Below, in pieces: positions 29,197 to 63,485 of a stretch of 64,000 nucleotides of DNA. The notes beneath the pieces were generated by a model, which was given only the letters and a program-made list of their open reading frames with translations, ran no database searches and was not told the origin of the DNA. The first letter of the stretch is position 1. Each line of letters begins with the position of its first letter. The stretch is taken from the NCBI GenBank assembly GCA_046704725.1, contig JBJKRI010000005.1:128001-192000 (forward strand), written 5' to 3'. Position numbers and translations under genes: made by a program. The stretch is from Candidatus Woesearchaeota archaeon. GTDB taxonomy: Archaea > Nanobdellota > Nanobdellia > Woesearchaeales > SKIA01.

Positions 29197-29294
29197 AACC
29201 TCCCTGAAAGAGCGTTCCTATAAAAACCTCTCGGCTGTTGCAGCGGTGGACACGCGCGCGGCATCTTTATTAATCGTGGAGGCCTCCATCAGCC

Positions 29295-29447
29295 ATGCCC
29301 TCGAAGATGGTCAGGATTCCCCGAGACGAGTACCGCGCGCTCCTCGAAGAAGTGGGCATCCTGCGCAATGAAGAAATGATGCGCGCCATCACGGAGAGCG
29401 AGGAAGCGAAGAAGCGCGGTCAAGAGCCTCACGAGCTTCACCTGTAA
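29295..29447 (+). CDS. RelB/Phd-like antitoxin, 50 aa (not in ORF track)
   Basis: MPSKMVRIPRDEYRALLEEVGILRNEEMMRAITESEEAKKRG...; typical EY..L.E...IL......I.ES.....RG pattern; TTTATTAA box upstream. Confidence 0.8.
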   Translation: MPSKMVRIPRDEYRALLEEVGILRNEEMMRAITESEEAKKRGQEPHELHL

Positions 29448-29698
29448 GCCGTATTGTGCGATCCCGCGGCGACGACAATGATGCGCTGGTTCTCATCGTC
29501 GATCTCATAGACGAGACGGAGGCCCGGGCCCAGCACGCAACTCCACTTGCCCTGGAGCTTCCCCCGCAACGGATGCGCGCCCGAATTGGTCCGTGGATCC
29601 TTGCTGAGCGATGAGAGACGCTTCCGGACGCCTGGACGGTCAAGAACGGCGTAGAACTGCTTTTCAGCCCGTCGGCTCCTCGTCCAGAACGAATACAT
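29438..29698 (-). CDS. RelE/YoeB-family toxin
   Basis: RAEKQF, L.KDP, HPLRGKLQGKWS, LRLVYEID, IIVV..GSH...Y. Confidence 0.85.
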   Translation of the reverse strand: MYSFWTRSRRAEKQFYAVLDRPGVRKRLSSLSKDPRTNSGAHPLRGKLQGKWSCVLGPGLRLVYEIDDENQRIIVVAAGSHNTAYR

Positions 29699-29794
29699 GG
29701 AGCACGCATATCGGATGCGCTATCAACGCTTGCTCTTGTCCGTGTCCAGTGATCCTGCCGCACGCTTTATATGCACCGCCGTATCTCTGCGGGC

Positions 29795-31186
29795 ATGCTC
29801 AGGACGCACACCTGCGGGGAACTCCGCAAAAACGACGCCGGCAAGACCGTGACCCTGGCCGGCTGGGTCGAGACGTTGCGCATCAGCGGGAAGATCGGTT
29901 TTCTGCTCCTGCGCGATCGCTACGGCATCACCCAGTGCTTCTTGAACGCCACGCTGGCGGAGCAGCTCAAGGATGTCAGGAGAGAATCCGTCGTGCAGGT
30001 GACGGGCGAGGTCAAGGAGCGTCCGGACAAGCAGAAGAAGCCAGAGATGGCGACCGGCGACATCGAGCTGTCCGTGAAAGAAGCGAACGTGCTGAGTGCG
30101 GCAGACCCGCTCCCCCTGGAGCTCGATGAGAGCGTGGAGACCAGCGAGGACACGAGGCTCAAGTATCGCTACCTCGACCTGCGACGGCCGCCCATGCAAG
30201 ACATGATCGCGAAACGGGACGCGTTCATCCACGCGATACGAGAGCATCTGCACCAGCAGGGATTCCTCGAGGTATCGACGCCAGTATTGACGAAGAGCAC
30301 GCCAGAAGGCGCGAGGGACTTCCTCGTGCCGAGCAGGCTGCACCGAGGCAAGTTCTACGCGCTGCCGCAGAGCCCGCAGCAGTACAAGCAATTGCTCATG
30401 GTCGCCGGCGCGGACAAGTACTTCCAAATCGCGCCATGCTTCCGCGACGAGGACGCGCGGGCCGACAGGAGCCCCGGAGAGTTCTACCAGCTCGACCTGG
30501 AGATGAGCTTCCCCGAGCAAGAGGACGTCCTGCGATTGACAGAAGAATTGTTCACGAAGGTGGTGACGGAGGTCTTCCCCGACAAGCGACTCACGACGCC
30601 CTTCCCGCGGCTCACCTACAAACAGGCTATGGAGAAGTACGGTACGGACAAGCCGGACCTGCGAAAGGACAAGAATGACCCTGATGAAATGGCGTTCTGC
30701 TGGGTCGTGGACTTCCCCCTCTTCGAGCCCGAGCTCGAGGACGGACACTACGCGCCCATGCATCATATGTTTACCATGCCCCACGAGGACGACCTGCCAC
30801 TGCTGAAGAGCGACCCCGGGAAGGCGCGGAGCTACCAGCACGACCTCGTCCTCAACGGCTTCGAGGTCGGCGGGGGCAGCATCCGTATCCACGACGCGAA
30901 GATCCAGGAGAAGATCTTCGAGCTCATCGGTTTCTCCAAGGAACAGGAAGAGTATTTCGCGCACATGCTCGAGGCCTTCCGCTACGGCGTGCCACCGCAC
31001 GGCGGCATCGCGCCGGGCATCGACCGCATGCTCATGGTACTGATGGGCAAGAAGAGCATCCGCGAGGTCATCGCTTTCCCCAAGAACAAGGACGCGCGCG
31101 ACGTGATGATGGACGCTCCCTCGACGGTGGACAAGGGCCAGCTCGACGATCTGGGCATCGCGCTCAAGGACACGCATCACTCATGA
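29795..31186 (+). CDS. aspS: Bacterial-type aspartate--tRNA ligase lacking the GAD insertion
   Basis: MLRTHTCGELR, RLKYRYLDLRR, TPEGARDFLVPSR, LPQSPQ, FRDED.RADR, YGTDKPDLR joined directly to WVVDFP, PPHGGIA.G.DR. Confidence 0.95.
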   Translation: MLRTHTCGELRKNDAGKTVTLAGWVETLRISGKIGFLLLRDRYGITQCFLNATLAEQLKDVRRESVVQVTGEVKERPDKQKKPEMATGDIELSVKEANVLSAADPLPLELDESVETSEDTRLKYRYLDLRRPPMQDMIAKRDAFIHAIREHLHQQGFLEVSTPVLTKSTPEGARDFLVPSRLHRGKFYALPQSPQQYKQLLMVAGADKYFQIAPCFRDEDARADRSPGEFYQLDLEMSFPEQEDVLRLTEELFTKVVTEVFPDKRLTTPFPRLTYKQAMEKYGTDKPDLRKDKNDPDEMAFCWVVDFPLFEPELEDGHYAPMHHMFTMPHEDDLPLLKSDPGKARSYQHDLVLNGFEVGGGSIRIHDAKIQEKIFELIGFSKEQEEYFAHMLEAFRYGVPPHGGIAPGIDRMLMVLMGKKSIREVIAFPKNKDARDVMMDAPSTVDKGQLDDLGIALKDTHHS

Positions 31187-31902
31187 GGGACACGCACGAC
31201 TACAACGCCGACGTCTACGACGTGGCGTACGCACCCTACTTCCCGCCGGAGAAGACAGCCGCGGAGCTCGAACGCATGCGCTCCCTTCTCCCCGAGCATG
31301 GGCGCGTGCTCGACCTTGGCTGCGGCACGGGACGCCATCTTGTCCCGCTCGCAAAAGAAGGCTATCGCGTGACGGGTGTGGACTCCTCCGAGGGCATGCT
31401 CAAAGCGTGCAAGAGAAAGCTCGCCGAAGCAGGAGCGAAGGCAAGGCTCATCCATGGCGATGCCACCACGGCGGAGCTCGGGGGGCACTATGGCCTTGCT
31501 GTCATCATGTGGAACGCCTTTTGCGAACTCGCTCCCGATGAAGGGGCGGCGGTCGCTTTCCTGAGGCGCATCAATGATTCCCTCGCAGAGGACGGGATGT
31601 TGCTCATCCAGCAGCATGACCCTGATGTGTTCAGCGAGGGACAGGAATCGCACTATGACGTCGTGGACGGCGATACCCGGTACACCGTTTCCTGGTATGT
31701 CCGGGAAAAGCATGATAAGACGACAGTCTCTGAAGAACAGCTCACTATCCGCTCGCCCGACAGAGAAGAGAAGCGCGTCTCAGAATTGCGGCAGCGCTGG
31801 TACTCGCGAACGGAATACGCCGCGCTCTTATTGCAGGCAGGATTTCTGGACGTGCGTTTCGAGGGCGAAGACGAGTTTCTTATCATAGCGAAGGGGGCAT
31901 AG
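31183..31902 (+). CDS. Class I SAM-dependent methyltransferase
   Basis: VLDLGCGTGRH, VTGVDSS..ML, GDA. Confidence 0.9.
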   Translation: MRDTHDYNADVYDVAYAPYFPPEKTAAELERMRSLLPEHGRVLDLGCGTGRHLVPLAKEGYRVTGVDSSEGMLKACKRKLAEAGAKARLIHGDATTAELGGHYGLAVIMWNAFCELAPDEGAAVAFLRRINDSLAEDGMLLIQQHDPDVFSEGQESHYDVVDGDTRYTVSWYVREKHDKTTVSEEQLTIRSPDREEKRVSELRQRWYSRTEYAALLLQAGFLDVRFEGEDEFLIIAKGA

Positions 31903-31932
31903 CTTCTTAATCAGACGGCATACCCTCTCCCC

Positions 31933-32361
31933 ATGAGAACTATCGCGGCTGGAGCGCTCCTCGCGCTCGCTCTGGGATGCTCGTCCCCGAAAGTACCGGT
32001 GCGCATGCGCGTTCTTGAGACTTCGAGGAGCGAATGGGTCGTGCGGCTCACGGATGCGCACGCGGGATTCGCCTGTGAAGTCGACCTCGACCTGGCGCGT
32101 CGGGCAGCGGAGAAGGGGTTGCCCATGGAACGCTCGTTCATAGAAGGCGTCGCGTACGCGCAGGGAGGGAAGGAACTCGTCTGGTATCGACGCGGAAGCT
32201 CATTCTTCGATCAGTTAATAGACACCGCGGAATTGGGCGAACAATGCGTCAATCTCGCACGAGCGATGAAAAAGACCGTGGCTGGTATCCCTACCGGGGC
32301 ACAAGTGTATCGAGCAGTGTCCGATACGACAGTGGAAGTCCCTCGCTATCAGCACCCGTGA
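31933..32361 (+). CDS. Putative lipoprotein
   Basis: Signal peptide with lipobox-like ALGC. Confidence 0.6.
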   Translation: MRTIAAGALLALALGCSSPKVPVRMRVLETSRSEWVVRLTDAHAGFACEVDLDLARRAAEKGLPMERSFIEGVAYAQGGKELVWYRRGSSFFDQLIDTAELGEQCVNLARAMKKTVAGIPTGAQVYRAVSDTTVEVPRYQHP

Positions 32362-32364
32362 TGC

Positions 32365-32943
32365 CTACGGATACAGGTAGACGCGCTGCGTAGTGATCAC
32401 GTCTGGGGTGTTGAACTCCACGAGAGTCGGCGTGCCGATCTTCGGGATGAAGTTCAGGCGGATATGCGCGTCCTGTCCGACGGAGTACGGCAGGGCGAAA
32501 TCGACCTGGATGACATCTCCGCGCTGGAGGTTGCCGTCGATATGATTGGTCCCGTTGATGAGGTAGCTCACGCCGAACGTGCCTGTGGAATTGGTCGTGT
32601 TGAACGTCGTGCCGCCGCTATAGACAAGGGTCGTCGTGGAGTTGTCCGTATCCTCCGTGAGGGTGACCTGATCGAGCTTGATCGGCTCGGAACCGGGGCT
32701 GAGCTTCATCTGCATGCTCAGGTTCTCGAGGGTCTGGTCGGTGCCGTCCACACCGGATACTTCGATGACGCGGGCGTTCGTGGAGATCTCTCCCTTGGAC
32801 TGCTCTCCGGTGGAGAGTGCCTTCTGCTGGAGACTGCCCGCTGTCTGCAACAACACTCCGGCCGCGACAGCCGCCACGAGGAGCATCGCGATGAAGATAA
32901 TCAGTGTTCCGACGCCCATCTCGGCTTTCCGGTTGCTGTGCAT
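32365..32943 (-). CDS. flaB: Archaellin (flagellin)
   Basis: Class III signal peptide RKA|EMGVGTLIIFIAMLLVAAVAAGVL.QT...LQQKA..TG. Confidence 0.92.
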   Translation of the reverse strand: MHSNRKAEMGVGTLIIFIAMLLVAAVAAGVLLQTAGSLQQKALSTGEQSKGEISTNARVIEVSGVDGTDQTLENLSMQMKLSPGSEPIKLDQVTLTEDTDNSTTTLVYSGGTTFNTTNSTGTFGVSYLINGTNHIDGNLQRGDVIQVDFALPYSVGQDAHIRLNFIPKIGTPTLVEFNTPDVITTQRVYLYP

Positions 32944-33079
32944 GAGGCGTTTTCTCTAGTGCATCGTTTAAAAATATTTCGTATAGACCTTTGCGGCTTG
33001 CAGGGAGGCGATATGTGCCGTTCTTCCACCTGCACCCGCAATCCAATAGCGTTTTAAATGGTCATTTTTTGGCCTGGGG

Positions 33080-34447
33080 ATGGTCCGCGACTACACGACA
33101 GGCAACATGCTCCGCGCGATCGCAAGCCTGTCGGTGCCCATCGTTCTGGCGAACATGCTGCAGAGCGCCTACCAGATCGTGGACACCTTCTGGGTCGGTC
33201 GTCTGGGAGCGGACGCCGTGGCCGCGGTGTCACTGTCGTTCCCCGTCTTGTTCCTGTTCCTCAGCCTGGGAGCGGGTCTGGCGGTGGGCGGTTCGGTATT
33301 GGTCGCGCAATCCCTGGGGCGCAAGGACAAGAAGGGCGTCGAGCACTTCGCCACGCAAGCCACCATCTCCGTGCTCGCCGTATCGGTCGTCTTCGCGATC
33401 ATCGGGTATTTCCTGTCGGGCGCGGCGATGCGGCTGCTCGGGGCGTCAGCGGCGGTCTGGCCGCTCGCCACGCAATACCTGCAGATCAGCTTCATCGGCA
33501 TGCCCTTCCTCTTCGGCTACTTCATCTACATGAGCGTGACGCGCGGTGTTGGCGAAGTGCGTATCCCGCTCCTCATCGTGCTGTCCACCGTATTGCTGGA
33601 CCTCGTGCTCGATCCCTTGTTCATCTACGGCTGGTGGTTCATCCCGGCGTCGGGCGTCGCCGGGGCCGCGTGGGCGAGCGTTGGAACGCAGCTCGTGAGC
33701 ATGATCCTCGGATTCACCCTCTTGCTGCGGGGAACGCACGGCGTGCGGCTGCACTGGCGCGACGCGAAGCCGGACAAAGAGGCGCAGCAGCGCATACTCC
33801 AGATCGGGTTCCCGCAGAGCATCAACCAGAGCAGCCGGGCGGCCGGCCTGCTCATCATGGCAGGACTCGTCGCTGCCCTGGGGACCGAGGTCATCGCCGC
33901 GTACGGCATCGGCATCCGGATATTCAGCTTCATCATCATCCCCGCGGCCGGCATGGCCATCGCGACGCAGACCCTCGTAGGGCAGAACATCGGAGCGGGA
34001 AAACCCGACCGCGCGGAACAGGCCGTCAAGCTCTCCGGATGGATATCCGCATTGATCCTGACCGGCGTCGGCGCCCTGGTCTTCTTGTTCGCACGACCCT
34101 TGGCAGCGTTCTTCATCCCCAACGACGCGCAGGTCATCGCCATGAGCGCGCAGTTCCTGCGCATCATGTCCTGGTCGTTCGGCCTGTTCGCGGTGCAGTT
34201 CGCCATCGCCGGCGGCTTCCGCGGGACCGGCCACACGGTCAAGGCACTGGTCATCACGCTCATCAGCTTGTTCCTCGTGCAGATCCCCGTGGCGTACATC
34301 CTGTCCAATTTCACATCGCTCAAGGAGGTGGGATTCTGGATATCGATACCAGCGGCGAACGTGGTGGGAGCGGTCGTGGGCGTTCTCTGGTTCCGGACGG
34401 GATCGTGGCGCAAGCCCGCGAAGGGTTCCGTGGCAAGGCGTCAGTAG
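33080..34447 (+). CDS. MATE-family efflux transporter
   Basis: P...N.LQ..Y..VDT..VG.LG, RG.G....P, LDPLFI, GV.GAA.A, duplicated architecture. Confidence 0.93.
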   Translation: MVRDYTTGNMLRAIASLSVPIVLANMLQSAYQIVDTFWVGRLGADAVAAVSLSFPVLFLFLSLGAGLAVGGSVLVAQSLGRKDKKGVEHFATQATISVLAVSVVFAIIGYFLSGAAMRLLGASAAVWPLATQYLQISFIGMPFLFGYFIYMSVTRGVGEVRIPLLIVLSTVLLDLVLDPLFIYGWWFIPASGVAGAAWASVGTQLVSMILGFTLLLRGTHGVRLHWRDAKPDKEAQQRILQIGFPQSINQSSRAAGLLIMAGLVAALGTEVIAAYGIGIRIFSFIIIPAAGMAIATQTLVGQNIGAGKPDRAEQAVKLSGWISALILTGVGALVFLFARPLAAFFIPNDAQVIAMSAQFLRIMSWSFGLFAVQFAIAGGFRGTGHTVKALVITLISLFLVQIPVAYILSNFTSLKEVGFWISIPAANVVGAVVGVLWFRTGSWRKPAKGSVARRQ

Positions 34448-36159
34448 ATGTCGAGGGACCAGGCGCGCTCGAGGTACTCGTTCACCATGCGGTGCGTGTT
34501 GAAATAGCTCGCCAACGACAATGCGTGGACCATGTGCTCTTTCCAGCGGCCGGGATGGTCGTAGAAGACGCGGATGATGTGGCCGTACAACTCGTACAAT
34601 GATAATTGGTCCTGGCCGTCGTGGCGGTGGCGGATGGTCCAGCCCGCCTGCGGGTTCTTCGCGATGCCCTCGATCCACCAGCCGTCGAGCGTTGAGAGGT
34701 TGGGCACGCCGTTCGCGGCGGCCTTCATGCCTGACGTTCCAGACGCTTCCTGCGGCGGGACGGGATTGTTCTGCCAGAGGTCGCAGCCGGCGACCATCTT
34801 CTGGGCGATGGTCGTGTCGTAATCGTCGAGGAAGACGATGTCGACTTGTCCCTTGAGGCGCTCGGCGACGTCGCAGACGCGCTTGATGATGTCTTTTCCC
34901 TCCTGATCGGCGGGATGCGCCTCGCCCGCGAAGATGACCTGAAGCTTGCCTTTCGCGAGCTTGAGGAAGGCGTCGATATCGGCGAACATGAGGTCGGCGC
35001 GCTTGTAGGCGGCGAAACGCCTGGCGAAACCGATGGTGAGCAGGTCCTGTTTGAGCTCGCGGCCCGTGCGCTCCTTGACGAAATCCAAGAGCTCGGCCTT
35101 GGCCTTCTGGTGGGCGTCCCAGAGCTGGTCGGGATCGATGATGAGATAGCAATGGTCGAGGATGGACGGCTCATGACGCCAAGACGGCATCGTCTCGTCG
35201 AGCAACGCCTGCACGTGGGGCGACATCCAGGTGGGCAGGTGCACGCCGTTGGTGACCGAGTCGAAGCGATAGCCGGGGAACATGCGCCTGCTGACCTCCG
35301 CGTGGCGCTTGGCAACCCCGTTAGCGTATCTGCTCAGGTTCAATGCGAGGCGCGTCATGTTGCAATCCGGATGGCCGCCCAGGTCGAGGCTGCCCCAGGC
35401 GAAATCGTCCTTTCCGAGGACTTCGCGCATCATCTCGTAGGGGAATCGGTCGTGCCCGGCCGGGACGGGCGTGTGGGTGGTGAAGACGTGCGCGCTCTTG
35501 ACGAGCTTGTGGATCTGGGGGCGGTTGAACTTGTAGTAGCGCGAGAGGTAGAAGACATCCTCCATGGGGGCGAAGGCTCCGTGGCCCTCGTTCATGTGGA
35601 AGGTGTTTATCTTGCGGCAGCCGAGCTTGCGCAACACGCGCTTTCCTCCGATGCCGAGGATGGCCTCCTGCTTGAGGCGCCAGCGCAGGTCGCCGGCGAA
35701 GAGCCGGTCGGTGATGGGGCGGACTCGCGGGTCGTTCACGTCGAGGTGCGTGTCCAGGAACAATACGGGGACGAGGTGCTTGTCGCCGTGGCCCACGATG
35801 ATGCCGACGCGCGGCTCGACCCAGACAGTCCTTCCTTCGATGATGAGATTGATGCGCGCGTCGGGGATGGGAACGGTGTACTCGTCCACATCCCACGGCT
35901 CGGGATCCTCGGATTGGACGCCGTTGGTGAGCAGCTGGCGGAAAAAGCCGTCGCGATAGAGCAGGGTGAGGCCGGTGACGTTCAAGGAGAGGTCGGCGCA
36001 GCTACGGAGCAGGTCTCCGGCGAGGACTCCCAATCCACCGCTATAGGTGCGGATCACCGGCTCGAGCGCGATCTCCATGGACGCGTAGAAGGTCTCTGAG
36101 CCGCGGATGGTATCGAGGGCGTAGTCGATGCTGTCCGGCTTGAAGAAGGACTGTTCCAT
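34441..36159 (-). CDS. glgP: Alpha-glucan (glycogen/maltodextrin) phosphorylase
   Basis: YSGGLGVLAGD, HMNEGH, FTTHTPVPAGHD, TNGVH, FARRF..YKR, EASGTSGMK PLP site, LDGWW.EG; GAGGTGA SD. Confidence 0.96.
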   Translation of the reverse strand: MEQSFFKPDSIDYALDTIRGSETFYASMEIALEPVIRTYSGGLGVLAGDLLRSCADLSLNVTGLTLLYRDGFFRQLLTNGVQSEDPEPWDVDEYTVPIPDARINLIIEGRTVWVEPRVGIIVGHGDKHLVPVLFLDTHLDVNDPRVRPITDRLFAGDLRWRLKQEAILGIGGKRVLRKLGCRKINTFHMNEGHGAFAPMEDVFYLSRYYKFNRPQIHKLVKSAHVFTTHTPVPAGHDRFPYEMMREVLGKDDFAWGSLDLGGHPDCNMTRLALNLSRYANGVAKRHAEVSRRMFPGYRFDSVTNGVHLPTWMSPHVQALLDETMPSWRHEPSILDHCYLIIDPDQLWDAHQKAKAELLDFVKERTGRELKQDLLTIGFARRFAAYKRADLMFADIDAFLKLAKGKLQVIFAGEAHPADQEGKDIIKRVCDVAERLKGQVDIVFLDDYDTTIAQKMVAGCDLWQNNPVPPQEASGTSGMKAAANGVPNLSTLDGWWIEGIAKNPQAGWTIRHRHDGQDQLSLYELYGHIIRVFYDHPGRWKEHMVHALSLASYFNTHRMVNEYLERAWSLDIY

Positions 36160-36290
36160 GCTCACCTCTGCGTTCCGAGCGGGGCGTCCCCTTTAAGAGG
36201 TTTGTGCAGGTACTCCTAACGAGTGTTCTTGACGAATTTTTCAGAAAGCGTAAAAGGGATGCGCGCATGCAACGGTCGGGGTGATACTCG

Positions 36291-36362
36291 ATGGATGATG
36301 ATTGGTGGGACGAAGAATGGGAATACTTCGACGGCTACCTGCGGCTGAAGCAAGAGGCGTAA
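36291..36362 (+). CDS. Candidate 23-aa acidic/aromatic micro-protein (MDDDWWDEEWEYFDGYLRLKQEA)
   Basis: GGGGTGAT SD before ATG; strongly biased composition. Confidence 0.45.
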   Translation: MDDDWWDEEWEYFDGYLRLKQEA

Positions 36363-36433
36363 GCGCCCGCTGGGAATCGAACCCAGGAATGACCGCTCTG
36401 CAGGCGGTTGCCTTACCGCTTGGCTACGGACGC
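36362..36433 (-). tRNA. tRNA-Cys (GCA)
   Basis: Reverse complement GCGTCCG...ACCGC-CTGCAGA-GCGGT...GGTTCGATTCC-CAGCGGGCGCT. Confidence 0.95.
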
Positions 36434-36459
36434 GTCATTGCGGACGAGCGGCCGTCCGT

Positions 36460-36750: not shown

Positions 36751-36785
36751 GGCCTGATAGGGTTTCGTGCCTTTTTAAATATGCG

Positions 36786-36890
36786 CTACAGGCAAGCCAC
36801 GCAGACGGCGACCCCGCCGAGCAAGGCGTACTCGTCGGCGCAGGTCACGCACATCTCGCGGCCGCAGCTCGCGCATTTTCCTTTTCGCAT
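36786..36890 (-). CDS. 34-aa Cys-rich zinc-binding micro-protein (not in ORF track)
   Basis: MRKGKCASCGREMCVTCADEYALLGGVAVCVACL: three CxxC pairs; shared upstream motif at 36944-36920. Confidence 0.7.
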   Translation of the reverse strand: MRKGKCASCGREMCVTCADEYALLGGVAVCVACL

Positions 36891-36919
36891 GCGATCCTTC
36901 TGTGCAAGGGGGAAGAAGA

Positions 36920-36944
36920 GCCTTACGCGCGTGGATGTCCGGTG
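36920..36944 (-). promoter_or_regulatory. Copy of shared upstream motif (CACCGGACATCCACGCGCGTAAGGC)
   Basis: Matches copies at 62472, 62941 and 63460; begins 54 nt before ATG 36890. Confidence 0.65.
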
Positions 36945-50628: not shown

Positions 50629-51210
50629 ATGGATTTCTCCTTCCGGGGCGTCAGCATCCCGAACATCAAGGGACTCATCGTCGCGGAGGCGCGAGATGAC
50701 TGGGGACGGCCGACGTTGGTACTCGGGTCCGAAGACAAGAAGAATCTCGTGCTCTACGCCGACAAGGGCGCCGACGGGGTGCCCGATGCCGTCGTGGTCT
50801 TGCGCGGCGGCCCGCGCGCCATCGGTCCATATATCAGGGCGCAATGCGCGCTCTTGCGTGGGGAGTATCTCAACGTGCCTGAAGTGGACGTCCCGGAGTG
50901 GATGGGGAGATACAAGATTGTCTATGCGGACCTACACGGAATGACCACGCTCGAGAGGAATCTCTTCGGCGCCATGTTCCGCGTCGCCTACAATAGCCTC
51001 GTCCTCCCGTCAGTGGACACAAAGACCCTCTCCGGCAAACCATTAAAACAGCGCGCGCCATCCAAGGGCCGTGGAACAGGGATTCATCCTCTATCCGACA
51101 TACCAGGCCACGGCGGACGGCGCGACCGTACAGCTCACCGGCCGACTGGAGAACGGCGCGACCTTCCGCGCGGACATCAAGCAAATCCCGTACTTCTTCA
51201 TCGCCGCTAG
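50629..51210 (+). CDS. Hypothetical protein; 3' end overlaps polB
   Basis: Protein-like up to about 51040, then reads through into polB in another frame. Confidence 0.4.
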   Translation: MDFSFRGVSIPNIKGLIVAEARDDWGRPTLVLGSEDKKNLVLYADKGADGVPDAVVVLRGGPRAIGPYIRAQCALLRGEYLNVPEVDVPEWMGRYKIVYADLHGMTTLERNLFGAMFRVAYNSLVLPSVDTKTLSGKPLKQRAPSKGRGTGIHPLSDIPGHGGRRDRTAHRPTGERRDLPRGHQANPVLLHRR

Positions 51211-53946: not shown

Positions 53947-54070
53947 TCATAGAGACAGTCAGACTGCCTACCCCCAACACCAGTATACCTGAACGTATAT
54001 TTATATGGTTCGGTCCTCCCACCGTCCACGCGCCCGCAAGGCTTTTGAATTGCGTAGGGTCGGGATCCGT

Positions 54071-55913: not shown

Positions 55914-55953
55914 ACGGAACGTTTATATCCGTCGGATTTCGTTTCTCGCAGTA

Positions 55954-57185: not shown

Positions 57186-57269
57186 CCGCGGAAATCTTTA
57201 TGAAGGACCGGATACCTGTCCGATGATGCTTCATGCGGGCATCTGCCGTGCATCATCGAGGATAGGCCG

Positions 57270-57932
57270 ATGGATGTGATGCACGCGACATATTTTGTCA
57301 TCGGGGGAGCGATCTTCGTGCTGGGAGGATTCACGCGTCTGCGCAAGCGACGGCTCATGCAGGATCTGCCTGTGAGTACGATACGCGGAGCGGCGATGGG
57401 CCTTGTTCAGATACGCGGCACGGCGCATGCGGACACGCAACAGAAGGCCCCGCTGAGCAAGAAGAAGTGCGTCTGGTACCGTGTGGTCATTGAGGAAACG
57501 AATATTATCACTGGTGACTGGAAGCAAGTGGATACTGAGGAAAAAGGCGGTCGCTTGTTCCTGCACGACGAGACAGGAATATGCGTGCTCGACCCGTCCG
57601 GATCGAAGCTGGACCTGCCGCTATCAGGGAGGACAGACACTTCGCAAGAAGAATCGGATCCGAATGATATCAGCGTGCATAAGGACACGCGGAAAAGCGA
57701 GTACATCATCACCGATGGCCAGGAACTCTATGTGCTGGCGAACGCAAGGCCCAACGAGGACGAACGCACAAAAGAGAAAGCGCCATTGCTGTTGGGGAAG
57801 GGATCGACCTATTTCACGGTGAGCGACAAGCCAGGATCCAAGTCAGAGCGCAGACTCCTCTATCTGTCGGCTCTGTCCACCGCATTCGGAGCGGCCATCA
57901 TGATATGGGGGCTTGTGAGTCTCTTGTCGTAG
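57270..57932 (+). CDS. GIDE-domain membrane protein, tandem paralog
   Basis: Same motifs as upstream gene (AAMG, APLS..CVWY, EEKG, DETG, EYIIT.G..LY.LANA.PNED, LGKG..FTVSDK). Confidence 0.8.
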   Translation: MDVMHATYFVIGGAIFVLGGFTRLRKRRLMQDLPVSTIRGAAMGLVQIRGTAHADTQQKAPLSKKKCVWYRVVIEETNIITGDWKQVDTEEKGGRLFLHDETGICVLDPSGSKLDLPLSGRTDTSQEESDPNDISVHKDTRKSEYIITDGQELYVLANARPNEDERTKEKAPLLLGKGSTYFTVSDKPGSKSERRLLYLSALSTAFGAAIMIWGLVSLLS

Positions 57933-57971
57933 CTGCATAACTCTTATGTACGAACCGGGGTTCGCCCATCC

Positions 57972-58691
57972 ATGCCGACCATCCAGCCGTACATGTCCGA
58001 TGCTTACACCAAGGAGTTCGACGCGACCGTCACGTCCGTCAAGGACGGCAAGTTCGTCACGCTCTCCACCACCTATTTCTATCCCTCGAGCGGCGGCCAG
58101 CCGCACGACACCGGAGTCCTGCGCACGAAGGACGGAAAGGAGGTGAAGGTCATCTACGCCGGCTTCTTCGACGGCACCGTCAGCCACCAGGTCGAGCCCG
58201 AAGACGTGCTGAAAGAGGGCGACGAGGTGCACGGCGTCATCGACTGGGAACGGCGCTACAAGCACATGCGCATGCACACGGCAGCGCACCTGGTGAGCTA
58301 TGTCTTCGAGCACGAGAAGGGCGCGAAGGTGACGGGCAACCAGATAGGCGAGGACAAGACGCGCATCGACTACCAGCTCGACGATTACAATCCCGAGGAG
58401 CTGCGCGGTTTCGAGGACAAGGTCAACGAACTCATCGCGCGCGACCTGCCGGTGTCGGCGGAAGTGCTTCCGCGTGCCGAAGCGGAGGAGAAGCTCGAGC
58501 GATTGACAACGCTCGCCATGGGCTTTCCCGAAGAGATCACAGAGGTACGATTGCTCTCCATCGGCGATGTCGACGTGCAGGCCGACGGCGGGACGCATGT
58601 CAAGAGCACGAAAGAGATCGGGAAGGTGCGTTTCCTCAAGTTCGACAACAAGGGAAAGAACAATCGCAGGGTCTACTTCACGCTAGAGTGA
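57972..58691 (+). CDS. alaX: AlaX alanyl-tRNA editing protein
   Basis: FYP..GGQP.DTG, IDWERRY..MR.HTA.H, D.Q.DGGTHV..T.EIG, KGK.N.R. Confidence 0.92.
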   Translation: MPTIQPYMSDAYTKEFDATVTSVKDGKFVTLSTTYFYPSSGGQPHDTGVLRTKDGKEVKVIYAGFFDGTVSHQVEPEDVLKEGDEVHGVIDWERRYKHMRMHTAAHLVSYVFEHEKGAKVTGNQIGEDKTRIDYQLDDYNPEELRGFEDKVNELIARDLPVSAEVLPRAEAEEKLERLTTLAMGFPEEITEVRLLSIGDVDVQADGGTHVKSTKEIGKVRFLKFDNKGKNNRRVYFTLE

Positions 58692-58715
58692 TCGCCTCGC
58701 CGCATGAGCAACACC

Positions 58716-59060
58716 CTACAATGCTCTTCTTTCCGCAGGGTCGCGCACCCGATACCACGGACCGGGGTCTTCGGCGTCATCGAAGACACGCATGCCCTCC
58801 GGCCGCTCGGGAAGCACATCGACGAGCCCTTCGCGCTCCCACGCCCCAATTCGACGAGGCAATGAGCGCCTGACGCTCCTGAAACCATCATCATCCCTCG
58901 GGGACGCGGCCGTCCGGGTCAAAACGTCGAGGAACGCGTTATGGCCATACGCCACCCGGATGCCCAATGACCGCTCCCAGAGCCGCTGATCATGCAGAGC
59001 CCCTACTATGTACACGTCACCCACCTCAACCATACAGCCGTGCATGTCGCGCACAATCAT
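58716..59060 (-). CDS. Possible hypothetical protein
   Basis: 3' part of a long minus-strand ORF fills an otherwise empty gap; start uncertain. Confidence 0.3.
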   Translation of the reverse strand: MIVRDMHGCMVEVGDVYIVGALHDQRLWERSLGIRVAYGHNAFLDVLTRTAASPRDDDGFRSVRRSLPRRIGAWEREGLVDVLPERPEGMRVFDDAEDPGPWYRVRDPAERRAL

Positions 59061-59210
59061 ATGTCTTGTGGAGAATTCCGCACTGCACGAAAGGAGCCTC
59101 CCTTTCGCCGGAACCGAAAGTATCAGTGAAGCGTACACTCGTCTACGATGCTCAGCAAAACCAAGCCATACCCTTATAAGCGATTCCGCACATTTTGTTA
59201 TCAGGGGGAA

Positions 59211-59354
59211 ATGGCAGGCGACCAGGAATCCGCAAGACACACGATCGACGTGTACACGCAGCAGGGGGGCTGCGTCGTGCACCGTCAGGTCGAATACCGG
59301 GACGGGCGCCTGTTCATGCGCGTGCAAAAGCGCAGCGTGCTCGACCTCATCTGA
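59211..59354 (+). CDS. Small hypothetical protein
   Basis: TTATAA box and AGGGGG SD upstream. Confidence 0.45.
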   Translation: MAGDQESARHTIDVYTQQGGCVVHRQVEYRDGRLFMRVQKRSVLDLI

Positions 59355-59393
59355 GGACGAAAGCTTAATCAACGCGGTCCGCTGGGATATCAT

Positions 59394-59696
59394 ATGCGCG
59401 CCGCATTCCTCGCTGTCATCGGCTTTCTCCTGCTCGCTGGATGCGTCTCGAACATCTGCCCGCAACAGCTCAATCTCACGAATCCCATCCCATACAATAT
59501 GCAGCCGTCGATGATGGGGATGACGAAGGTCTACGACCAGTCCATCAGCGTGAAAGGAGAGGTCTACCTGCTCCAGGTCTGGTCCGAGGGCAACGGCACG
59601 TACTACGTGCGTTACGAGCCAGAGAACTTCGGGGGACGCACCCTCTACGGACCGTTCATCGGTAACGCGACCACCGATATCCAGTGCCATGGCTGA
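59394..59696 (+). CDS. Putative lipoprotein
   Basis: Lipobox LLAGC. Confidence 0.7.
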   Translation: MRAAFLAVIGFLLLAGCVSNICPQQLNLTNPIPYNMQPSMMGMTKVYDQSISVKGEVYLLQVWSEGNGTYYVRYEPENFGGRTLYGPFIGNATTDIQCHG

Positions 59697-59865
59697 ATTC
59701 GAGAAGCCCCGGATGCGCTGGAACACGGGCACGATGCAGTACGAGCCCGTCATCGAGAGCGAAGGAGACGAAAAACCGCCGCAGAAGGGAATGGGCTGGT
59801 ACGTCGTGGCGATCATCATCCTCTTGCTGGTACTGCTTGTCCTCGTGCTCCTAACACACATATGA
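59689..59865 (+). CDS. Small C-terminally anchored membrane protein (58 aa, not in ORF track)
   Basis: MAEFEKPRMRWNTG...WYVVAIIILLLVLLVLVLL; overlaps preceding stop. Confidence 0.65.
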   Translation: MAEFEKPRMRWNTGTMQYEPVIESEGDEKPPQKGMGWYVVAIIILLLVLLVLVLLTHI

Positions 59866-59922
59866 CCACTTATAAGTGGTTAAAATAGGAAATATTTTAA
59901 ACTCCGACACCCCCTACAACAC

Positions 59923-60777
59923 ATGCGTTCTCTGGCTGAATCGAAGCGCGCTATCTCGCCCGATGGCATGGAGATCAGGTATTGGGTCAACTGGCAGAAA
60001 GGCATGAGAGACACGTTCACCGTGCTGCATCCCGGGGCGGCGCTCAACCACAGCTCCCTGGAACGGCTCGAGGATGGACTGCACTTGCGAGGCATCCCGA
60101 CGGTGGTCTTCGACCCGCGCGGATCCGGATACTCGGACCACCCCATATCGAGGGAGTACTTCCGACTGGAGCGGTTGACAGACGATCTGGAGGTCATCGC
60201 AGAGCAGGAAGGACTGGAGCGGCCCTGCTTCGTGACGCACAGCTTCGGCTTCATGCCGGCGGTGGACTATGCGGTACGCACGGCCAATGCGCAGGGCATC
60301 ACAGGCATAGGCGCGAGCCATAACTTCCGGAGGACCGCGCCCAACACGCTCCTGTTCGAGCTCTTCGACAAGGTGCTCATCCACTCGGAATACATCGGAA
60401 GCCTCGGGACGCTCGTAGGACACTGCCTTTCCGGCACGCAGCGTCCCGCGTGCACCGATCAATCACTGTCCGAATCAGAATTCCAGCTCTGGCAATCCAT
60501 CGTGGACATCCCGCTCGCGCAAGCGGCCAGCCATGTAATCGGGCAACGCGAATGCAACTGCTGGGACATCACCGAACAACTCGGTCGGCTCGAAGCCCCC
60601 GTGCTCCTCATCCACGGCGAAAAAGACATGATGGTCCGGCCTGTCGCGGGGACCTATATAGAGGAACGCACGAACGCCCCATGCGAGCGCTATGTCGTCG
60701 AAGGGGCGACGCATTCTCTTCCAGTGTTCCGGCCCGAAACGGTCCTATCCATCATGGATGCGTATGACCGACGCTGA
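59923..60777 (+). CDS. Alpha/beta hydrolase
   Basis: LHPG, D.RG.GYSD, HSFG nucleophile elbow, PVLLIHGEKD, GATH. Confidence 0.88.
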   Translation: MRSLAESKRAISPDGMEIRYWVNWQKGMRDTFTVLHPGAALNHSSLERLEDGLHLRGIPTVVFDPRGSGYSDHPISREYFRLERLTDDLEVIAEQEGLERPCFVTHSFGFMPAVDYAVRTANAQGITGIGASHNFRRTAPNTLLFELFDKVLIHSEYIGSLGTLVGHCLSGTQRPACTDQSLSESEFQLWQSIVDIPLAQAASHVIGQRECNCWDITEQLGRLEAPVLLIHGEKDMMVRPVAGTYIEERTNAPCERYVVEGATHSLPVFRPETVLSIMDAYDRR

Positions 60778-60810
60778 AAGCTTTTTATAGCGCTTCTCCG
60801 TGCCAGAGGC

Positions 60811-61389
60811 ATGCGATTCTCCCAACAAGAGGTCCGGGACCTGCTCATCGCGTGGGTCATGATCAGCATCGCGTTCGGAATCCTCTTCAGGGACCAGACC
60901 ACATTCCTGACGGCGATACTTATCAGCGCGGTCACAGCAGGCATCGGTTTCCTGCTCCACGAGCTCGCGCACAAGGCCGTCGCGCAGCGCATGGGCAAGT
61001 TCGCGGAGTTCCACGCCTACCTGCCGACACTCGTCATCAGCGTGGTGCTCGCCTTCACAGGGCTCGTGGTAGCGGCGCCGGGAGCCGTGGTCATCAGCGG
61101 CTTCGTCAACCGGCGTGAGAACGGACTGATAAGCGCGGCAGGACCGCTCACCAACATCGCGCTCGCCGTGATATTCCTGCTCCTGCTCCTGCTGTCGCCA
61201 CTGCATTCATTGCTTGCCATCATCGCGGGCATGGGCTTTGTCATCAACAGCTGGCTCGCATTGTTCAACCTGATACCCTTCGGCATCTTCGACGGTGCCA
61301 AGATCATCCAGTGGAACAAGGCGTTCTTCTCCGCCATGGCGGTAGCGAGCGTCGTCCTCGTCTTCTTCAGCGCCATCCTCCACCCGTGA
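60811..61389 (+). CDS. Site-2 protease (M50) metalloprotease
   Basis: HELAH, AGP..N, FNLIP....DG. Confidence 0.92.
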   Translation: MRFSQQEVRDLLIAWVMISIAFGILFRDQTTFLTAILISAVTAGIGFLLHELAHKAVAQRMGKFAEFHAYLPTLVISVVLAFTGLVVAAPGAVVISGFVNRRENGLISAAGPLTNIALAVIFLLLLLLSPLHSLLAIIAGMGFVINSWLALFNLIPFGIFDGAKIIQWNKAFFSAMAVASVVLVFFSAILHP

Positions 61390-61979
61390 ACGCGCGCGGA
61401 CCGCTCAGCCTTGTCGCGATCCTCATCGTGCTCGTCGCGCTCGGGGCAATACTGCTCAGCCACCTGCCGAGCACGGTCACCGGACTCGCATTGTTCTTCC
61501 TCGTCATCCTCGAGACGGTGGTCGCGCCCATCCCCGGAGGCGCCGTCGCGTACCTCGGAGCCGCGACGCTCGGATTCTGGCGGTCGTGGCCGATATTGTA
61601 TGTGGGAAACGTCATAGGCACGGCAATCGTGTTCACGCTCGCAAGACGCATCGGAAAGCCCTACGTGGACCGCATGGTCCCCGCGAAAAAGCGCAAGCGC
61701 TACGAGAACCTGTTGACACGGCACCAACGACTGCTCTGGTTCGTTTACGCGATGCCCCTGTTCCCGCTGGATATGATCAGTATCCTCGCAGGATTCACGA
61801 AGATGCCGACGAGGCGCTTTCTCATCATCGCCGTGACCGCGCTGCCGTTCTCGACGGGGATGGTCGCTTTCGCCGGAGCGTTCCTCGGAAAATACCTGGG
61901 CGTGCTCAACATGGTATCGCTCATCGTGCTCGGAGCGCTCGCCCTCGGCGCGGTCTGGCTCTGGCGCCGACACCACTGA
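61386..61979 (+). CDS. TVP38/VTT (DedA-superfamily) membrane protein
   Basis: APIPG, G..IG....F..AR..G, P..P.D.....AG. Confidence 0.85.
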   Translation: MNARGPLSLVAILIVLVALGAILLSHLPSTVTGLALFFLVILETVVAPIPGGAVAYLGAATLGFWRSWPILYVGNVIGTAIVFTLARRIGKPYVDRMVPAKKRKRYENLLTRHQRLLWFVYAMPLFPLDMISILAGFTKMPTRRFLIIAVTALPFSTGMVAFAGAFLGKYLGVLNMVSLIVLGALALGAVWLWRRHH

Positions 61980-62436
61980 CGATACGACGCCACTCGATGA
62001 CGACAAGGATGAATATCGCGGCGTCGACCACGGTGAGAATCGTGAGCAATACCGATCCCGTGGCGAGTATCTGGACGACCTGCACGCCGATGAGGGCGAG
62101 CAAGGCGACAAGAGCGACGGGGAAGACCCAGAGAATCTCGAGCCACAAGCCGATGGCCAAAGCGACCTTGATGACACCGTGCCCGAGCAGGTAGAGCGCT
62201 GCGAACGACGCGGTGCCGGGAGAGACGCCCCCCAAGTGCCCGAGCAGGAAGGTCGCGACAAGGTCGTGTGGATCCTCGGCGACCTCCGCGACCGCCATAC
62301 GCGCTATGATGGACAGCAACGCTTTCGCGCCCACAGCGAGCACGGCGATGCCGCTGAAAAGCTCGATCACTCCGTCGAGCCCCTTGATGACGACGCCCAA
62401 TCGATAGAGCCAATGGGTGACTGACGAGAAACGCAT
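61921..62436 (-). CDS. DUF2127-like membrane protein
   Basis: KG.DG..E...G, E..EDP.D..A, FAA.YLL.HG..K, D........EW. Confidence 0.75.
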   Translation of the reverse strand: MRFSSVTHWLYRLGVVIKGLDGVIELFSGIAVLAVGAKALLSIIARMAVAEVAEDPHDLVATFLLGHLGGVSPGTASFAALYLLGHGVIKVALAIGLWLEILWVFPVALVALLALIGVQVVQILATGSVLLTILTVVDAAIFILVVIEWRRIVSGVGARARPRRGRALRAR

Positions 62437-62471
62437 GGGCGGCTGACCACGTACCGGAATATAAAGCCTGC

Positions 62472-62490
62472 CACCGGACAAACGCGCGTA
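62472..62490 (+). promoter_or_regulatory. Shared upstream motif copy CACCGGACAAACGCGCGTA
   Basis: 18/19 identical to 62941 copy; begins 51 nt before GTG 62523. Confidence 0.7.
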
Positions 62491-62522
62491 GCGTACAAGA
62501 AACGTGAGGATATCCTCGCGCC

Positions 62523-62960
62523 GTGCTGGTCGGGGTGCTCGGGAAACGACGGGAGACGGATGCTGCCGTATTGCGGTACGCGTGCCGACACCCGCCCGCA
62601 TTGGTCATCGACTGCGGGAACGCGGCCGACCCCCACGCCCTGTTCCCCGCGGCGAGCGCCGAACAGCTCGAACGCGTGCGCAGCGTGCCCATCGACCTGC
62701 TCTACCAATTGCGCGACGCCGCACGCATCCTGCCGGAACTTGTGGGGGACGCGCGCCTTGTCGTCGTGACATCGCCGTACCACCTGTTCAACTACCACGA
62801 CGAAGAGGAGAACACCGCGGTCGAGCAGCACGCGTGGGAACTGCTCGCGAAGCACGGCAAGCGGCTGCACATCCTCGTCTCCGTGCCGGCAGGGACACGC
62901 CACGAGCGCTGGGCCCGACGCTACTGCGAGCGCATCCACGCACTGGACAAACGCGCGTAA
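62523..62960 (+). CDS. Truncated, inactive RadA/RecA-like protein (PolB2-cassette type)
   Basis: VIDCGN.ADPH, LERV......YQL; no Walker A. Confidence 0.7.
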   Translation: MLVGVLGKRRETDAAVLRYACRHPPALVIDCGNAADPHALFPAASAEQLERVRSVPIDLLYQLRDAARILPELVGDARLVVVTSPYHLFNYHDEEENTAVEQHAWELLAKHGKRLHILVSVPAGTRHERWARRYCERIHALDKRA

Positions 62961-62966
62961 GGCATA
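62941..62966 (+). repeat. Direct repeat / motif copy left of TA module
   Basis: CACTGGACAAACGCGCGTAAGGCATA, 23/26 identical to 63460-63485. Confidence 0.8.
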
Positions 62967-63011
62967 TGGGGGACGAAAGGATTTAAGACCTGCCGCAGCT
63001 TCTCAGCTTTG

Positions 63012-63212
63012 ATGGCAAAGGATATGCAAGACATCACACGCGAAATCGAGGCCCTTCGCAAGGATATAAAAGATATCCGCTCGCGGATGGTGGACGTGGA
63101 CATGCTCCTTTCCGAACGCGAGCGAAAACGCCTTGAAGAATCGCTCGATGAACTGCGTTCAGGCAAGGCCATCTCGCATGAGGAGCTCGTAAGAGAGCTC
63201 CATGACGCTTGA
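63012..63212 (+). CDS. RelB-like antitoxin
   Basis: LS..E...LEES..E.R.GK.IS.EEL..EL; overlaps toxin start. Confidence 0.85.
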   Translation: MAKDMQDITREIEALRKDIKDIRSRMVDVDMLLSERERKRLEESLDELRSGKAISHEELVRELHDA

Positions 63213-63459
63213 ACGACGCTACTCCTCGCACGCGCAACATGCTATCAACAAGCTTTCTGAGCGGCTACGCGGGCGGATCCTCGCACGGATATCCGAACTG
63301 CAGGAAGAGCCGTTCCCACCTGACGCGAAACGCGTCGTGAACCGCAAGGAAAAAACGTTCCGCGTACGGGTCGGCGGGTACCGTATCCTCTACGTCGTGC
63401 TCGCCGAAGAAGGAATCCTGTTCATCTCCGACGTGGACAAGCGCGAACGCGTCTACTAG
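63202..63459 (+). CDS. relE: RelE/ParE-family toxin
   Basis: RI...I.EL..EP.P, FRVRVGGYRILY, I..VDKRERVY. Confidence 0.92.
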   Translation: MTLERRYSSHAQHAINKLSERLRGRILARISELQEEPFPPDAKRVVNRKEKTFRVRVGGYRILYVVLAEEGILFISDVDKRERVY

Positions 63460-63485
63460 CACTGGACAAGGACGCGTAAGGCATA
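63460..63485 (+). repeat. Direct repeat / motif copy right of TA module
   Basis: CACTGGACAAGGACGCGTAAGGCATA; begins 51 nt before ATG 63511. Confidence 0.8.

Follow-up and report, generated by a model that had tools for sequence, protein, structure and literature searches.

Does a short DNA word that recurs at a fixed distance before scattered genes mark a damage-response regulon in an archaeon? The question is raised by a stretch of 64,000 nucleotides from the genome of a Candidatus Woesearchaeota archaeon (contig JBJKRI010000005.1, positions 128,001 to 192,000, here called the window; G000:C5:128001-192000 in the coordinates used below), for which an original prediction had proposed that one upstream motif links DNA-repair, toxin-antitoxin and small genes. 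To our knowledge, archaea lack LexA. For this reason, and because DNA-repair gene expression in Sulfolobus is not increased after UV according to the accessible text of PMC2246294, it had stayed open whether any archaeon co-ordinates its repair genes. The core of the motif is the 9-mer CACTGGACA, which has the look of a control site for an SOS-like set of archaeal genes. It stands in one orientation at a fixed distance from the core promoter, marks a genome-wide set of recombination, repair and replication genes, and is conserved across the order Woesearchaeales, with the operon containing radA as its most conserved target.

A word at a fixed position upstream of the core promoter

The genome analysed (G000; 1.18 Mb, 8 contigs, about 60% GC) was given a set of about 1135-1140 genes by a crude codon-usage caller written for this analysis. 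Its predicted DPANN-type identity agrees with the best matches of one G000 protein (75-82% identity), which are metagenome-assembled genomes titled Candidatus Woesearchaeota. Averaged over about 1135 called genes, the upstream regions show an A-rich TFB recognition element (BRE) at -35 to -32 from the start codon and a TTTAAAA-type TATA box at -29 to -23; no Shine-Dalgarno signal stands out. Because BRE and TATA box sit just before the start codons and a clear Shine-Dalgarno signal is missing, most mRNAs appear to be leaderless. The distance of 51-54 nt between motif and start codon follows from this layout, since under mostly leaderless transcription anything tied to the core promoter lies at a fixed distance from the start.

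The motif is non-palindromic, lies wholly upstream of the BRE and occurs in a single orientation: its first base is followed after 15-18 nt by the BRE/TATA window and after 51-54 nt by the start codon. An iteratively refined position weight matrix (PWM) adds a weaker extension to the core in G000, CACTGGACA-NN-C-R-Y-G (CRYG), and about 50 G000 promoters carry CACTGGACA-NN-CRYG. The longer motif first proposed, ending in GCGTAAGGC, was not upheld, as its extension consists of the BRE and a weak TATA box and not of upstream-site sequence; the arrangement CGTAAG-N-TATATAAA recurs across the order.

The exact word occurs 26 times in G000, compared with 9 for the reversed word, and a BRE/TATA match starts at +13 to +20 after 20 of these 26 copies. 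When one mismatch is allowed, the BRE/TATA matches peak at +15 to +18, with 66 hits at this offset against 3-14 for six shuffled cores. A positional peak before start codons had been predicted, and an unbiased positional 6-mer scan recovered it: CACTGG at -52 is the most position-restricted word upstream of the BRE, followed by ACTGGA, CTGGAC and TGGACA, each shifted by one base. (The positional test was used in place of plain enrichment ranking of upstream 6-mers, which is dominated by AT-rich words.) Sites that combine the PWM with a correctly placed BRE/TATA number 53 at a score above 10 and 77 at a score above 9, where column-permuted PWMs give 8.0 and 19; the training sites were selected for a TATA box, so that the joint count is somewhat circular, and the column-permuted control has the same bias. 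A PWM score of at least 12 is reached at only 118 of 2,367,116 genome positions, and CACYGGACA has six copies in the window against 1.06 expected. The motif is thus a genuine position-fixed element upstream of the promoter, as had been claimed.

Several motif copies in G000 have unusual arrangements. Inverted pairs, which may be overlapping divergent promoters, occur at C6:153585-153638 and C3:93949-94026, with the copies 45 and 69 nt apart; those at C6:153585/153630 flank a single palindromic TTATAA before an Orc1-like gene. At C6:109159, 109922 and 110577 lie three tandem cassettes about 650-760 nt apart, with a near-identical upstream stretch that ends in the one-mismatch variant CACAGGACA; the cassette at C6:109159 drives a PIN-domain gene.

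Conservation across Woesearchaeales

Counts in relatives, which are not independent of one another, give 1801 copies of the exact word in 153 genomes of the same order against 376 of the reversed control. The word exceeds its own control in 140 of these genomes, and in 67 it reaches 8 or more copies and at least four times the control. In 47 genomes from other orders of the class there are 150 copies against 48, with four genomes clearly enriched (for example, G090 with 21 against 0). The word persists across a GC range of 0.23-0.63 in the loci examined. Pairs of the word also occur outside the order, but at other distances (G090, 14 nt; G201, 9 nt; G166, 13 nt). Genomes poor in the word include G031 and G048 (family f26), G072 and G078 (f50) and G150 and G219 (f51), together with most other orders of the class, whereas G001, G133, G124, G144, G090 and G201 are rich in it.

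In G001, a member of the same genus with much lower GC, an ORF (open reading frame) of at least 40 aa starts at +42 to +56 from 21 of 26 distinct sites, and the TATA box lies about 24 nt after the motif start, as judged by eye in printed contexts. Orthologues of G000 members that also carry the motif in G001 are the UvrD/RQC helicase, the Orc1-like protein, the Cas4-like nuclease, the 131-aa protein, the Zn-ribbon protein, MCM and LAGLIDADG proteins; in these G000/G001 pairs the motif is kept while the flanks have diverged. Further motif genes of G001 encode MgsA, RFC-S, RFC-L, UvrA, KilA-N, Bro-N and an RNase_T exonuclease. The G001 MCM gene (L086, G001:C8) also contains an intein, seen as a Pfam Intein_splicing hit inside the ORF. 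In G021 and G008, which belong to other families, the motif genes, named partly by eye and partly by BLAST clusters, include those for Hef, UvrA, UvrB, MCM, NreA, a Cas4-like nuclease and RadC, together with a primase-like protein, a recombinase, a C5-methyltransferase, LAGLIDADG, Bro-N and a DinD-like protein (the last named by eye).

The radA operon

The evolutionary core of the regulon is an operon of two genes, one for a 77-aa protein and the other radA (G000:C5:52796-53997, with radA at C5:53050-53997). In 29 of 30 loci radA comes next after the small gene, and the motif, with at most one mismatch, stands upstream of the operon in 45 of 49 genomes (28 of 30 in one set, 17 of 19 in a further one), including genomes that have two to six copies altogether. 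The predicted conservation upstream of orthologues is borne out by this operon and by several G000/G001 pairs. When the 45 promoters are aligned, the 9-mer is nearly invariant and its neighbouring bases are free; a BRE/TATA lies at +15 to +17 in 35 of the 45.

The 77-aa protein has 4803 homologues, all named 'hypothetical', many of which have an acidic C-terminal tail that often ends in hydrophobic residues. Its AlphaFold2 model (pLDDT 93.8) shows a beta-beta-beta-beta-alpha fold. Likeness to known structures is weak: the best Foldseek match is Pur-alpha 3n8b (E 0.27), and the best VIA match is the YbaB-like HP0035 (Z 5.2, rmsd 2.7 over 56 residues). A profile search of the PDB returned nothing below E 0.7, Pfam and NCBIfam had no family for it, and the ESM Atlas gave unnamed clusters only. 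The protein may be a RadA partner or a single-stranded DNA-binding protein.

Unlike the leaderless majority, the radA operon has a 5' leader of 58-150 nt (G000:C5:52728-52798; leaders in L240-L266). Its 3' part is conserved as TGAAAYAARATGCGAA(A)GCAAGGAGG, followed by 8-10 nt and the ATG. Three G-C to C-G swaps leave a mini-hairpin, GC-GNNA-GC, intact, with large hairpin insertions in its loop in some lineages, and anti-Shine-Dalgarno-like CTTCC/CTCC words occur upstream. Rfam gave no match in ten radA-operon loci. The conserved leader is probably structured and may be a translational operator.

Just upstream of the operon, a 213-aa ORF (C5:52033-52671) appears by eye to encode a full sigma-70 factor of the extracytoplasmic function (ECF) type, with the region 4 signature GTVKSRLHRAR. 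The gene was found in 3 of 41 relatives and is therefore probably a recent acquisition from bacteria.

Genes marked by the motif

Members were taken to be ORFs of at least 40 codons that start +49 to +58 from a site with a score of 12 or more, or of 10 or more when a TATA box is present. Among the 39 ORFs obtained, five were dropped (probable antisense or tiny ORFs without a TATA box), NAC was left unscanned and 33 were scanned; some functional names, namely NAC and those of several G021 and G008 genes, are our own readings. The resulting genome-wide set bears out the claim that scattered DNA-repair, toxin-antitoxin and small genes are linked by the motif.

Repair members named by Pfam are Hef (ERCC4 and helicase), a UvrD helicase with RQC and HRDC domains, Rad50/SMC, UvrB, Hjc and NreA (Nre_N/C). 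Others are an Orc1/Cdc6-like AAA+ protein, a PolB-family protein (DNA_pol_B), a PD-(D/E)XK nuclease of Cas4/Dna2-like type (PDDEXK_1/Cas4), VRR_NUC, NrdR, NUDIX, PIN, MazE/AbrB-type and ParE/RelE-type proteins and, behind a weak site, a peptidase A4. The canonical Orc1 with a Cdc6_C domain (C3:29372) is also a member. The strongest site in G000 lies 141 nt upstream of MCM. Two genes stand behind a motif-bearing neighbour: radA directly behind the 77-aa gene, and a ribonucleotide reductase (RNR) gene behind nrdR. About ten small proteins have no Pfam family. The predicted enrichment before recombination and repair genes was thus found, the motif preceding radA and its small partner gene, Rad50, Hef, UvrA/B and nucleases. 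Among targets typical of SOS systems, radA, UvrB and a UvrD-like gene carry the site; that of UvrA is weak in G000 and exact in G001 and G021, and RFC-S in G000, like UvrA, has no more than a weak version.

The motif is scarce before genes at large, again as predicted. DNA-metabolism genes account for 17 of the 33 scanned members and for 2 of 20 random promoter-bearing genes without the motif (Fisher p = 0.002; 0.03 without LAGLIDADG), in a comparison weakened by the small control set of 20 genes, the non-independence of six LAGLIDADG paralogues and gene calls from a crude caller. The two control genes encode a second UvrD-like helicase and TopoVI-B.

The LAGLIDADG members number six, five assigned by Pfam LAGLIDADG_3 and the sixth by BLAST cluster. 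They are free-standing genes with the promoter motif (C3:184277-185209, C8:56536-57471, C6:24369-25046, C5:231829-232269, C6:50157-51041 and C4:77039-77812), and several of the proteins have, by eye, an N-terminal stretch resembling a helix-turn-helix (HTH). The family is also a regulon member in G001, G021 and G008. These genes look like homing-endonuclease-like genes riding a repair promoter.

Sites and genes in the window

All eight sequences that had been picked out in the window are present at their positions and on their strands, with start codons at the distances predicted. Five rank among the top 118 of 2.37 million genome positions (PWM 12.8-16.6), one is borderline and two are weak.

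Three of the five lie close together near the end of the window on the plus strand. The motif CACCGGACAAACGCGC (62472..62487; PWM 12.8) has a weak BRE/TATA at +15 (TATA score 4.0) and a GTG at +51, and forms the promoter of a 145-aa ORF (62523..62960). This ORF had been called RadA-like, a label that could not be verified, as neither Pfam nor NCBIfam gave a hit; the true radA is the gene at C5:53050-53997, itself a regulon member. The second motif, CACTGGACAAACGCGC (62941..62956; PWM 15.6, TATA 3.5), shares sequence with the 3' end of the 145-aa ORF and stands before a toxin-antitoxin pair, with start codons at +68/+71 and a second TATA-like sequence, TTTAAG, at 62982. In the pair, a 66-aa ORF (63012..63212, plus strand) with no family above cut-off is assigned as antitoxin by position only and overlaps the start of an 85-aa ParE/RelE-type toxin gene (63202..63459, plus strand; Pfam ParE_toxin E 1.1e-7, 32.7 bits, above cut-off). 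Immediately behind the stop codon of the toxin gene, the motif CACTGGACAAGGACGC (63460..63475; PWM 16.6, TATA 1.6, ATG at +51) is the promoter of a 79-aa ORF (63511..63750, plus strand), for which Pfam and NCBIfam had no hit. A further motif promoter, at C5:192520 and so 520 nt beyond the window end, precedes a 719-aa PolB-like gene (Pfam DNA_pol_B and NCBIfam type B polymerase). These elements form an island of four successive motif promoters within 2.1 kb (window 62472-64000, on to C5:194732), which drive the 145-aa ORF, the antitoxin and ParE-like pair, the 79-aa ORF and the PolB-like gene.

The other two strong sites lie on the minus strand. The motif CACTGGACACGGACAA (29736..29751; PWM 15.6, TATA 3.9, ATG at +53) is the promoter of an 86-aa RelE/ParE/YafQ-like toxin gene (29438..29698, minus strand), whose Pfam matches, YafQ_toxin (E 3.9e-5) and ParE_toxin (E 1.9e-4), are both below curated cut-offs. 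The motif CACCGGACATCCACGC (36929..36944; PWM 15.6, TATA -1.7, ATG at +54) stands before a 34-codon ORF (36786-36890). The borderline site, CGGTGGACACGCGCGC (29244..29259, plus strand; PWM 9.5), has a strong TATA box (8.6) and an ATG at +51, which opens a 50-aa ORF (29295-29447) with no Pfam or NCBIfam family.

The remaining two sites, which had been termed a variant and a weaker copy, do score weakly. The variant CACCGTCCACGCGCCC (54020..54035, plus strand; PWM 6.3, TATA 7.7, start codon at +49/+51) precedes a YprB-like exonuclease gene (Pfam RNase_H_2 E 4e-32), and the membership of this promoter in the regulon is doubtful; a possibly similar gene, its likeness judged by eye, has an exact motif in G021 (L099). 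The sequence CAGTGGACAC (51011..51026, plus strand), 60 nt before polB, is not supported as a motif site (PWM 7.4, BRE/TATA score of -9.0 at the usual spacing).

Four members (start codons at 62523, 63511, 29698 and 36890) had been said to lack a good TATA box. Each has BRE/TATA-like sequence at the expected position, with scores of 4.0, 1.6, 3.9 and -1.7 against a median of 9.5 in other promoters; the boxes are indeed weak, but to call them absent would go too far.

A likely transcription factor site and its probable sign

The fixed distance and orientation to the BRE/TATA, the conservation of the word amid drifting flanks and the coherent gene set together argue for a transcription factor site and hence for a regulon. 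We consider it likely, on sequence grounds, that CACTGGACA is the site of a sequence-specific factor that binds upstream of the BRE/TATA and marks about 50 promoters as a recombination, repair and replication regulon. Around the radA operon, this regulon would gather Hef, Rad50, UvrA/B, the UvrD/RQC helicase, NreA, Hjc, MCM, Orc1/Cdc6, the PolB-like protein, nucleases and nrdR-RNR, and it would include selfish or accessory members, namely LAGLIDADG and toxin-antitoxin genes here and Bro-N, KilA-N and DinD-like (by eye) genes in relatives. The factor would act as an activator, helping TFB and TBP onto weak core promoters, and the signal would be DNA damage or replication stress, making the set an archaeal functional analogue of the SOS regulon.

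The factor is probably an activator, a view that we hold with modest confidence. The site lies wholly upstream of the BRE, the core promoters of members are weaker (median BRE/TATA score 5.8 against 9.5 in non-members; Mann-Whitney U test, p = 0.04, n = 16 versus 683), and several window members have almost no TATA box. According to the accessible text of PMC5817253, archaeal activators bind upstream of the core promoter, whereas repressors usually block the binding of TBP, TFB or RNA polymerase.

Several observations weigh against the regulon so described. Without the TATA requirement the PWM is only moderately specific: 41 sites score above 14 and 420 above 10, where 9 and 229 are expected. 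The motif is missing in G000 before the genes for PCNA, DNA ligase, UvrC, RFC-L, a RadB-like protein, the second UvrD-like helicase, TopoVI-B and the main PolB. Membership is plastic between genomes: the hjc promoter has the motif in G000 and in 0 of 29 relatives (at most one mismatch, at promoter distance), the Orc1-like paralogue in 8 of 79 orthologous Woesearchaeota promoters (mostly at -53) and the Zn-ribbon gene in 8 of 29. In 19 of the 45 radA promoters a second motif copy stands 7, 8 or 9 nt upstream of the first, a tandem arrangement for which this reading does not account. The core-promoter evidence for activation is weak, at p = 0.04, and regulation itself, its sign and its signal are all inferred. 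Finally, no regulator was found, each candidate tested being unsupported.

Candidates for the regulator

The 77-aa radA partner was rejected, being present in 174 of 201 genomes, including ones free of the word, and not found in the word-rich G001 and G002. The Orc1-like paralogue occurs in 183 of 201 genomes; since these also include genomes without the word, its distribution is uninformative. The HTH-LAGLIDADG proteins were set aside as well: their Pfam family, in which inteins predominate, occurs in word-free genomes and went undetected in the word-rich G101 and G081. The class as a whole has many LAGLIDADG_3 hits within ORFs of 800-2500 aa, suggesting that inteins are widespread in it. NrdR was found in five word-free genomes (G067, G086, G126, G138 and G176) and not in four word-rich ones (G041, G083, G096 and G026). 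Among 41 genomes, the ECF-sigma-like gene beside the radA operon was found in 3 and the 131-aa member protein in 9, and both were rejected; the 62-aa Zn-ribbon protein, also considered, was found in 33 and gained no support, the motif preceding its gene in only 8 of 29. No WYL domain was found in G000. A TFB paralogue, before which the original prediction had suggested looking for the motif, did not materialize: the two TFIIB repeats of G000 lie in one ORF, its single TFB gene. The KilA-N/Bro-N proteins of G001 had no orthologue in G000 by tblastn at E 1e-8 (no family-level search was made) and so are not the common regulator.

Alternative explanations

The same element and gene set could instead serve a replication or cell-cycle programme of S-phase type, in which replication, dNTP-supply and recombination genes are switched on once per cycle, as by MBF or E2F. 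This explanation competes seriously with the damage reading because MCM, Orc1/Cdc6, RFC and nrdR-RNR are members, although we hold it to be rather unlikely. The G000 members include MCM, both Orc1/Cdc6 genes, RFC-S (with its weak site), the nrdR-RNR operon and the PolB-like gene, and G001 adds its own MCM together with RFC-S, RFC-L and MgsA. Against these stand the G000 genes for PCNA, ligase, RFC-L and the main PolB, which have no site, and the most conserved target, which is radA. The accessory members, moreover, are of kinds typical of SOS regulons: UvrA/B/D, the PolB-like protein, toxin-antitoxin genes, Bro-N/KilA-N and a DinD-like gene (by eye).

The site might also be a repressor operator of LexA-like logic, with the repressor removed or inactivated on damage. 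Known bacterial damage regulons mostly work by derepression, in some members the core promoter is strong (TATA score 10-15, as at C2:46723, C6:142881 and C6:153585), and tandem copies could nucleate oligomers that spread over the BRE/TATA. A repressor of the usual archaeal kind described above would, however, be expected to obstruct the core promoter, and the site lies entirely upstream of it; member core promoters are also weaker on average, and some in the window nearly lack a TATA box. Repression is a rather unlikely alternative to an activator.

Orc1-2 acts as a transcription regulator in the Sulfolobus damage response, and the word could accordingly be an element like the origin recognition box (ORB), bound by Orc1/Cdc6 in that role. 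Both G000 Orc1/Cdc6 genes carry the motif, with the inverted copies at C6:153585/153630 flanking TTATAA, and the reverse complement, TGTCCAGTG, shares the heptamer TCCAGTG with the Pyrococcus mini-ORB TTCCAGTGGAACT (PMC1904270). The TTCC and GAA that the accessible text of PMC1904270 gives as perfectly conserved are not kept, with GTCC here and no GAA, and TGTCCAGTG is followed by unconstrained bases. An exact promoter-oriented copy lies within 800 nt upstream of canonical orc1 in only 2 of 30 loci (G000 and G004), three other orc1 loci have a one-mismatch copy on the opposite strand, and no copies cluster at the AT-rich stretch beside orc1 in the 30 relatives, where other repeats look more ORB-like. 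The word is instead tied to the BRE/TATA in one orientation, and overlapping tandem copies 7 nt apart would suit a small DNA-binding module better than an Orc1 footprint. An ORB-type element is therefore improbable.

The region upstream of canonical orc1 is itself likely to be an origin region. In G000 it contains an AT-rich stretch at C3:29290-29360 (region C3:29180-29420) and, at about 29220, a GTGTGGAAAC word that is ORB-like by eye. Many relatives have hjc no more than a few kb from orc1, and the small gene is also present there in G022 and G034.

That the word is non-regulatory, a compositional artefact or a passenger of mobile or duplicated promoter cassettes (LAGLIDADG, toxin-antitoxin, small ORFs), is very improbable and largely refuted by its conservation in orthologous promoters: many members are indeed selfish or multi-copy (six LAGLIDADG paralogues, several toxin-antitoxin genes, the three near-identical upstream copies at C6:109159, 109922 and 110577), but the word also precedes single-copy conserved genes (the radA operon in 45 of 49 genomes and, in several families, Hef, UvrA/B and MCM), stays fixed while its flanks are free and GC varies from 0.23 to 0.63, and outnumbers reversed or shuffled control words 3-5 times.

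Comparison with known systems

As a putative activator site, the element works like an archaeal upstream activating site of the Ptr2, TFB-RF1 and ARA-box class, with which it shares a position directly upstream of the BRE/TATA at fixed spacing and orientation; it belongs to no named system compared. Comparable in layout is the UV-inducible motif of Sulfolobales, 5'-A(N)TTTC-3', which occurs at -39 to -44 from the transcription start site in ups, tfb3 and related promoters according to the accessible text of PMC5817253. As that text describes it, this motif too is short and non-palindromic, stands just upstream of the BRE in a damage-linked set, occurs in front of numerous genes and, from species to species, is kept in only some orthologous promoters. 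The words differ, as do the positions, which here are about -53 to -45 (to -39 with the extension). The Sulfolobales regulon centres on pili, DNA exchange and tfb3, whereas the genes here are bona fide repair and recombination genes in a genome with one TFB.

Bacterial SOS regulons contain recA, uvrA, uvrB and uvrD, a polymerase, toxin-antitoxin genes, DinD, prophage-type genes and dNTP-supply genes. The set found here resembles them in its recA homologue, uvrA/uvrB/uvrD, B-family polymerase, RelE/ParE-type toxin-antitoxin genes, DinD-like gene (by eye), Bro-N/KilA-N genes and dNTP supply. The operator of those regulons, the LexA box, is palindromic, overlaps the promoter and binds a self-cleaving repressor; the element here is, in contrast, a non-palindromic 9-mer wholly upstream of an archaeal BRE/TATA. 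Activation of repair genes from an upstream motif is known from PafBC in mycobacteria and DriD in Caulobacter (accessible text of PMC6789036 and PMC12340889), which are WYL-domain regulators of a kind not found in G000.

Like the eukaryotic MCB/SCB elements (bound by the APSES-domain factors MBF and SBF) and E2F sites, the motif is one short upstream word that would co-ordinate replication and repair genes, but it has no sequence similarity to these G1/S elements. KilA-N proteins are related to APSES domains, and the KilA-N member of the G001 regulon gives a tie to them. The word is not an NrdR box, as NrdR occurs in several word-free genomes and was not found in several word-rich ones. No description of the word or its regulon was found in the open-access literature searched (subscription journals and supplements were outside its scope).

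Biological significance

The UvrABC and UvrD genes are of bacterial type and were acquired from bacteria. We tentatively propose that Woesearchaeales and some neighbouring orders have an SOS-like programme in which one factor, possibly of a new family, would read CACTGGACA and activate a radA-centred set on damage or replication stress; UvrABC/UvrD would have been wired into archaeal promoter logic, with toxin-antitoxin and homing-endonuclease-like genes hitch-hiking.

What the element provides is an order-wide, sequence-defined candidate regulon with a sharp cis-element and a core target, the radA operon, and a prediction set of about 50 promoters in G000, with similar numbers in well over a hundred other genomes. 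By-products of the analysis are a large family of proteins co-transcribed with radA, a conserved 5' leader and selfish genes recruited to a repair promoter. DPANN archaea are almost entirely uncultured, and the word gives a handle on their gene regulation. If the SOS-like reading is true, this would be the first damage regulon of repair genes defined in Archaea, and in an uncultured DPANN lineage.

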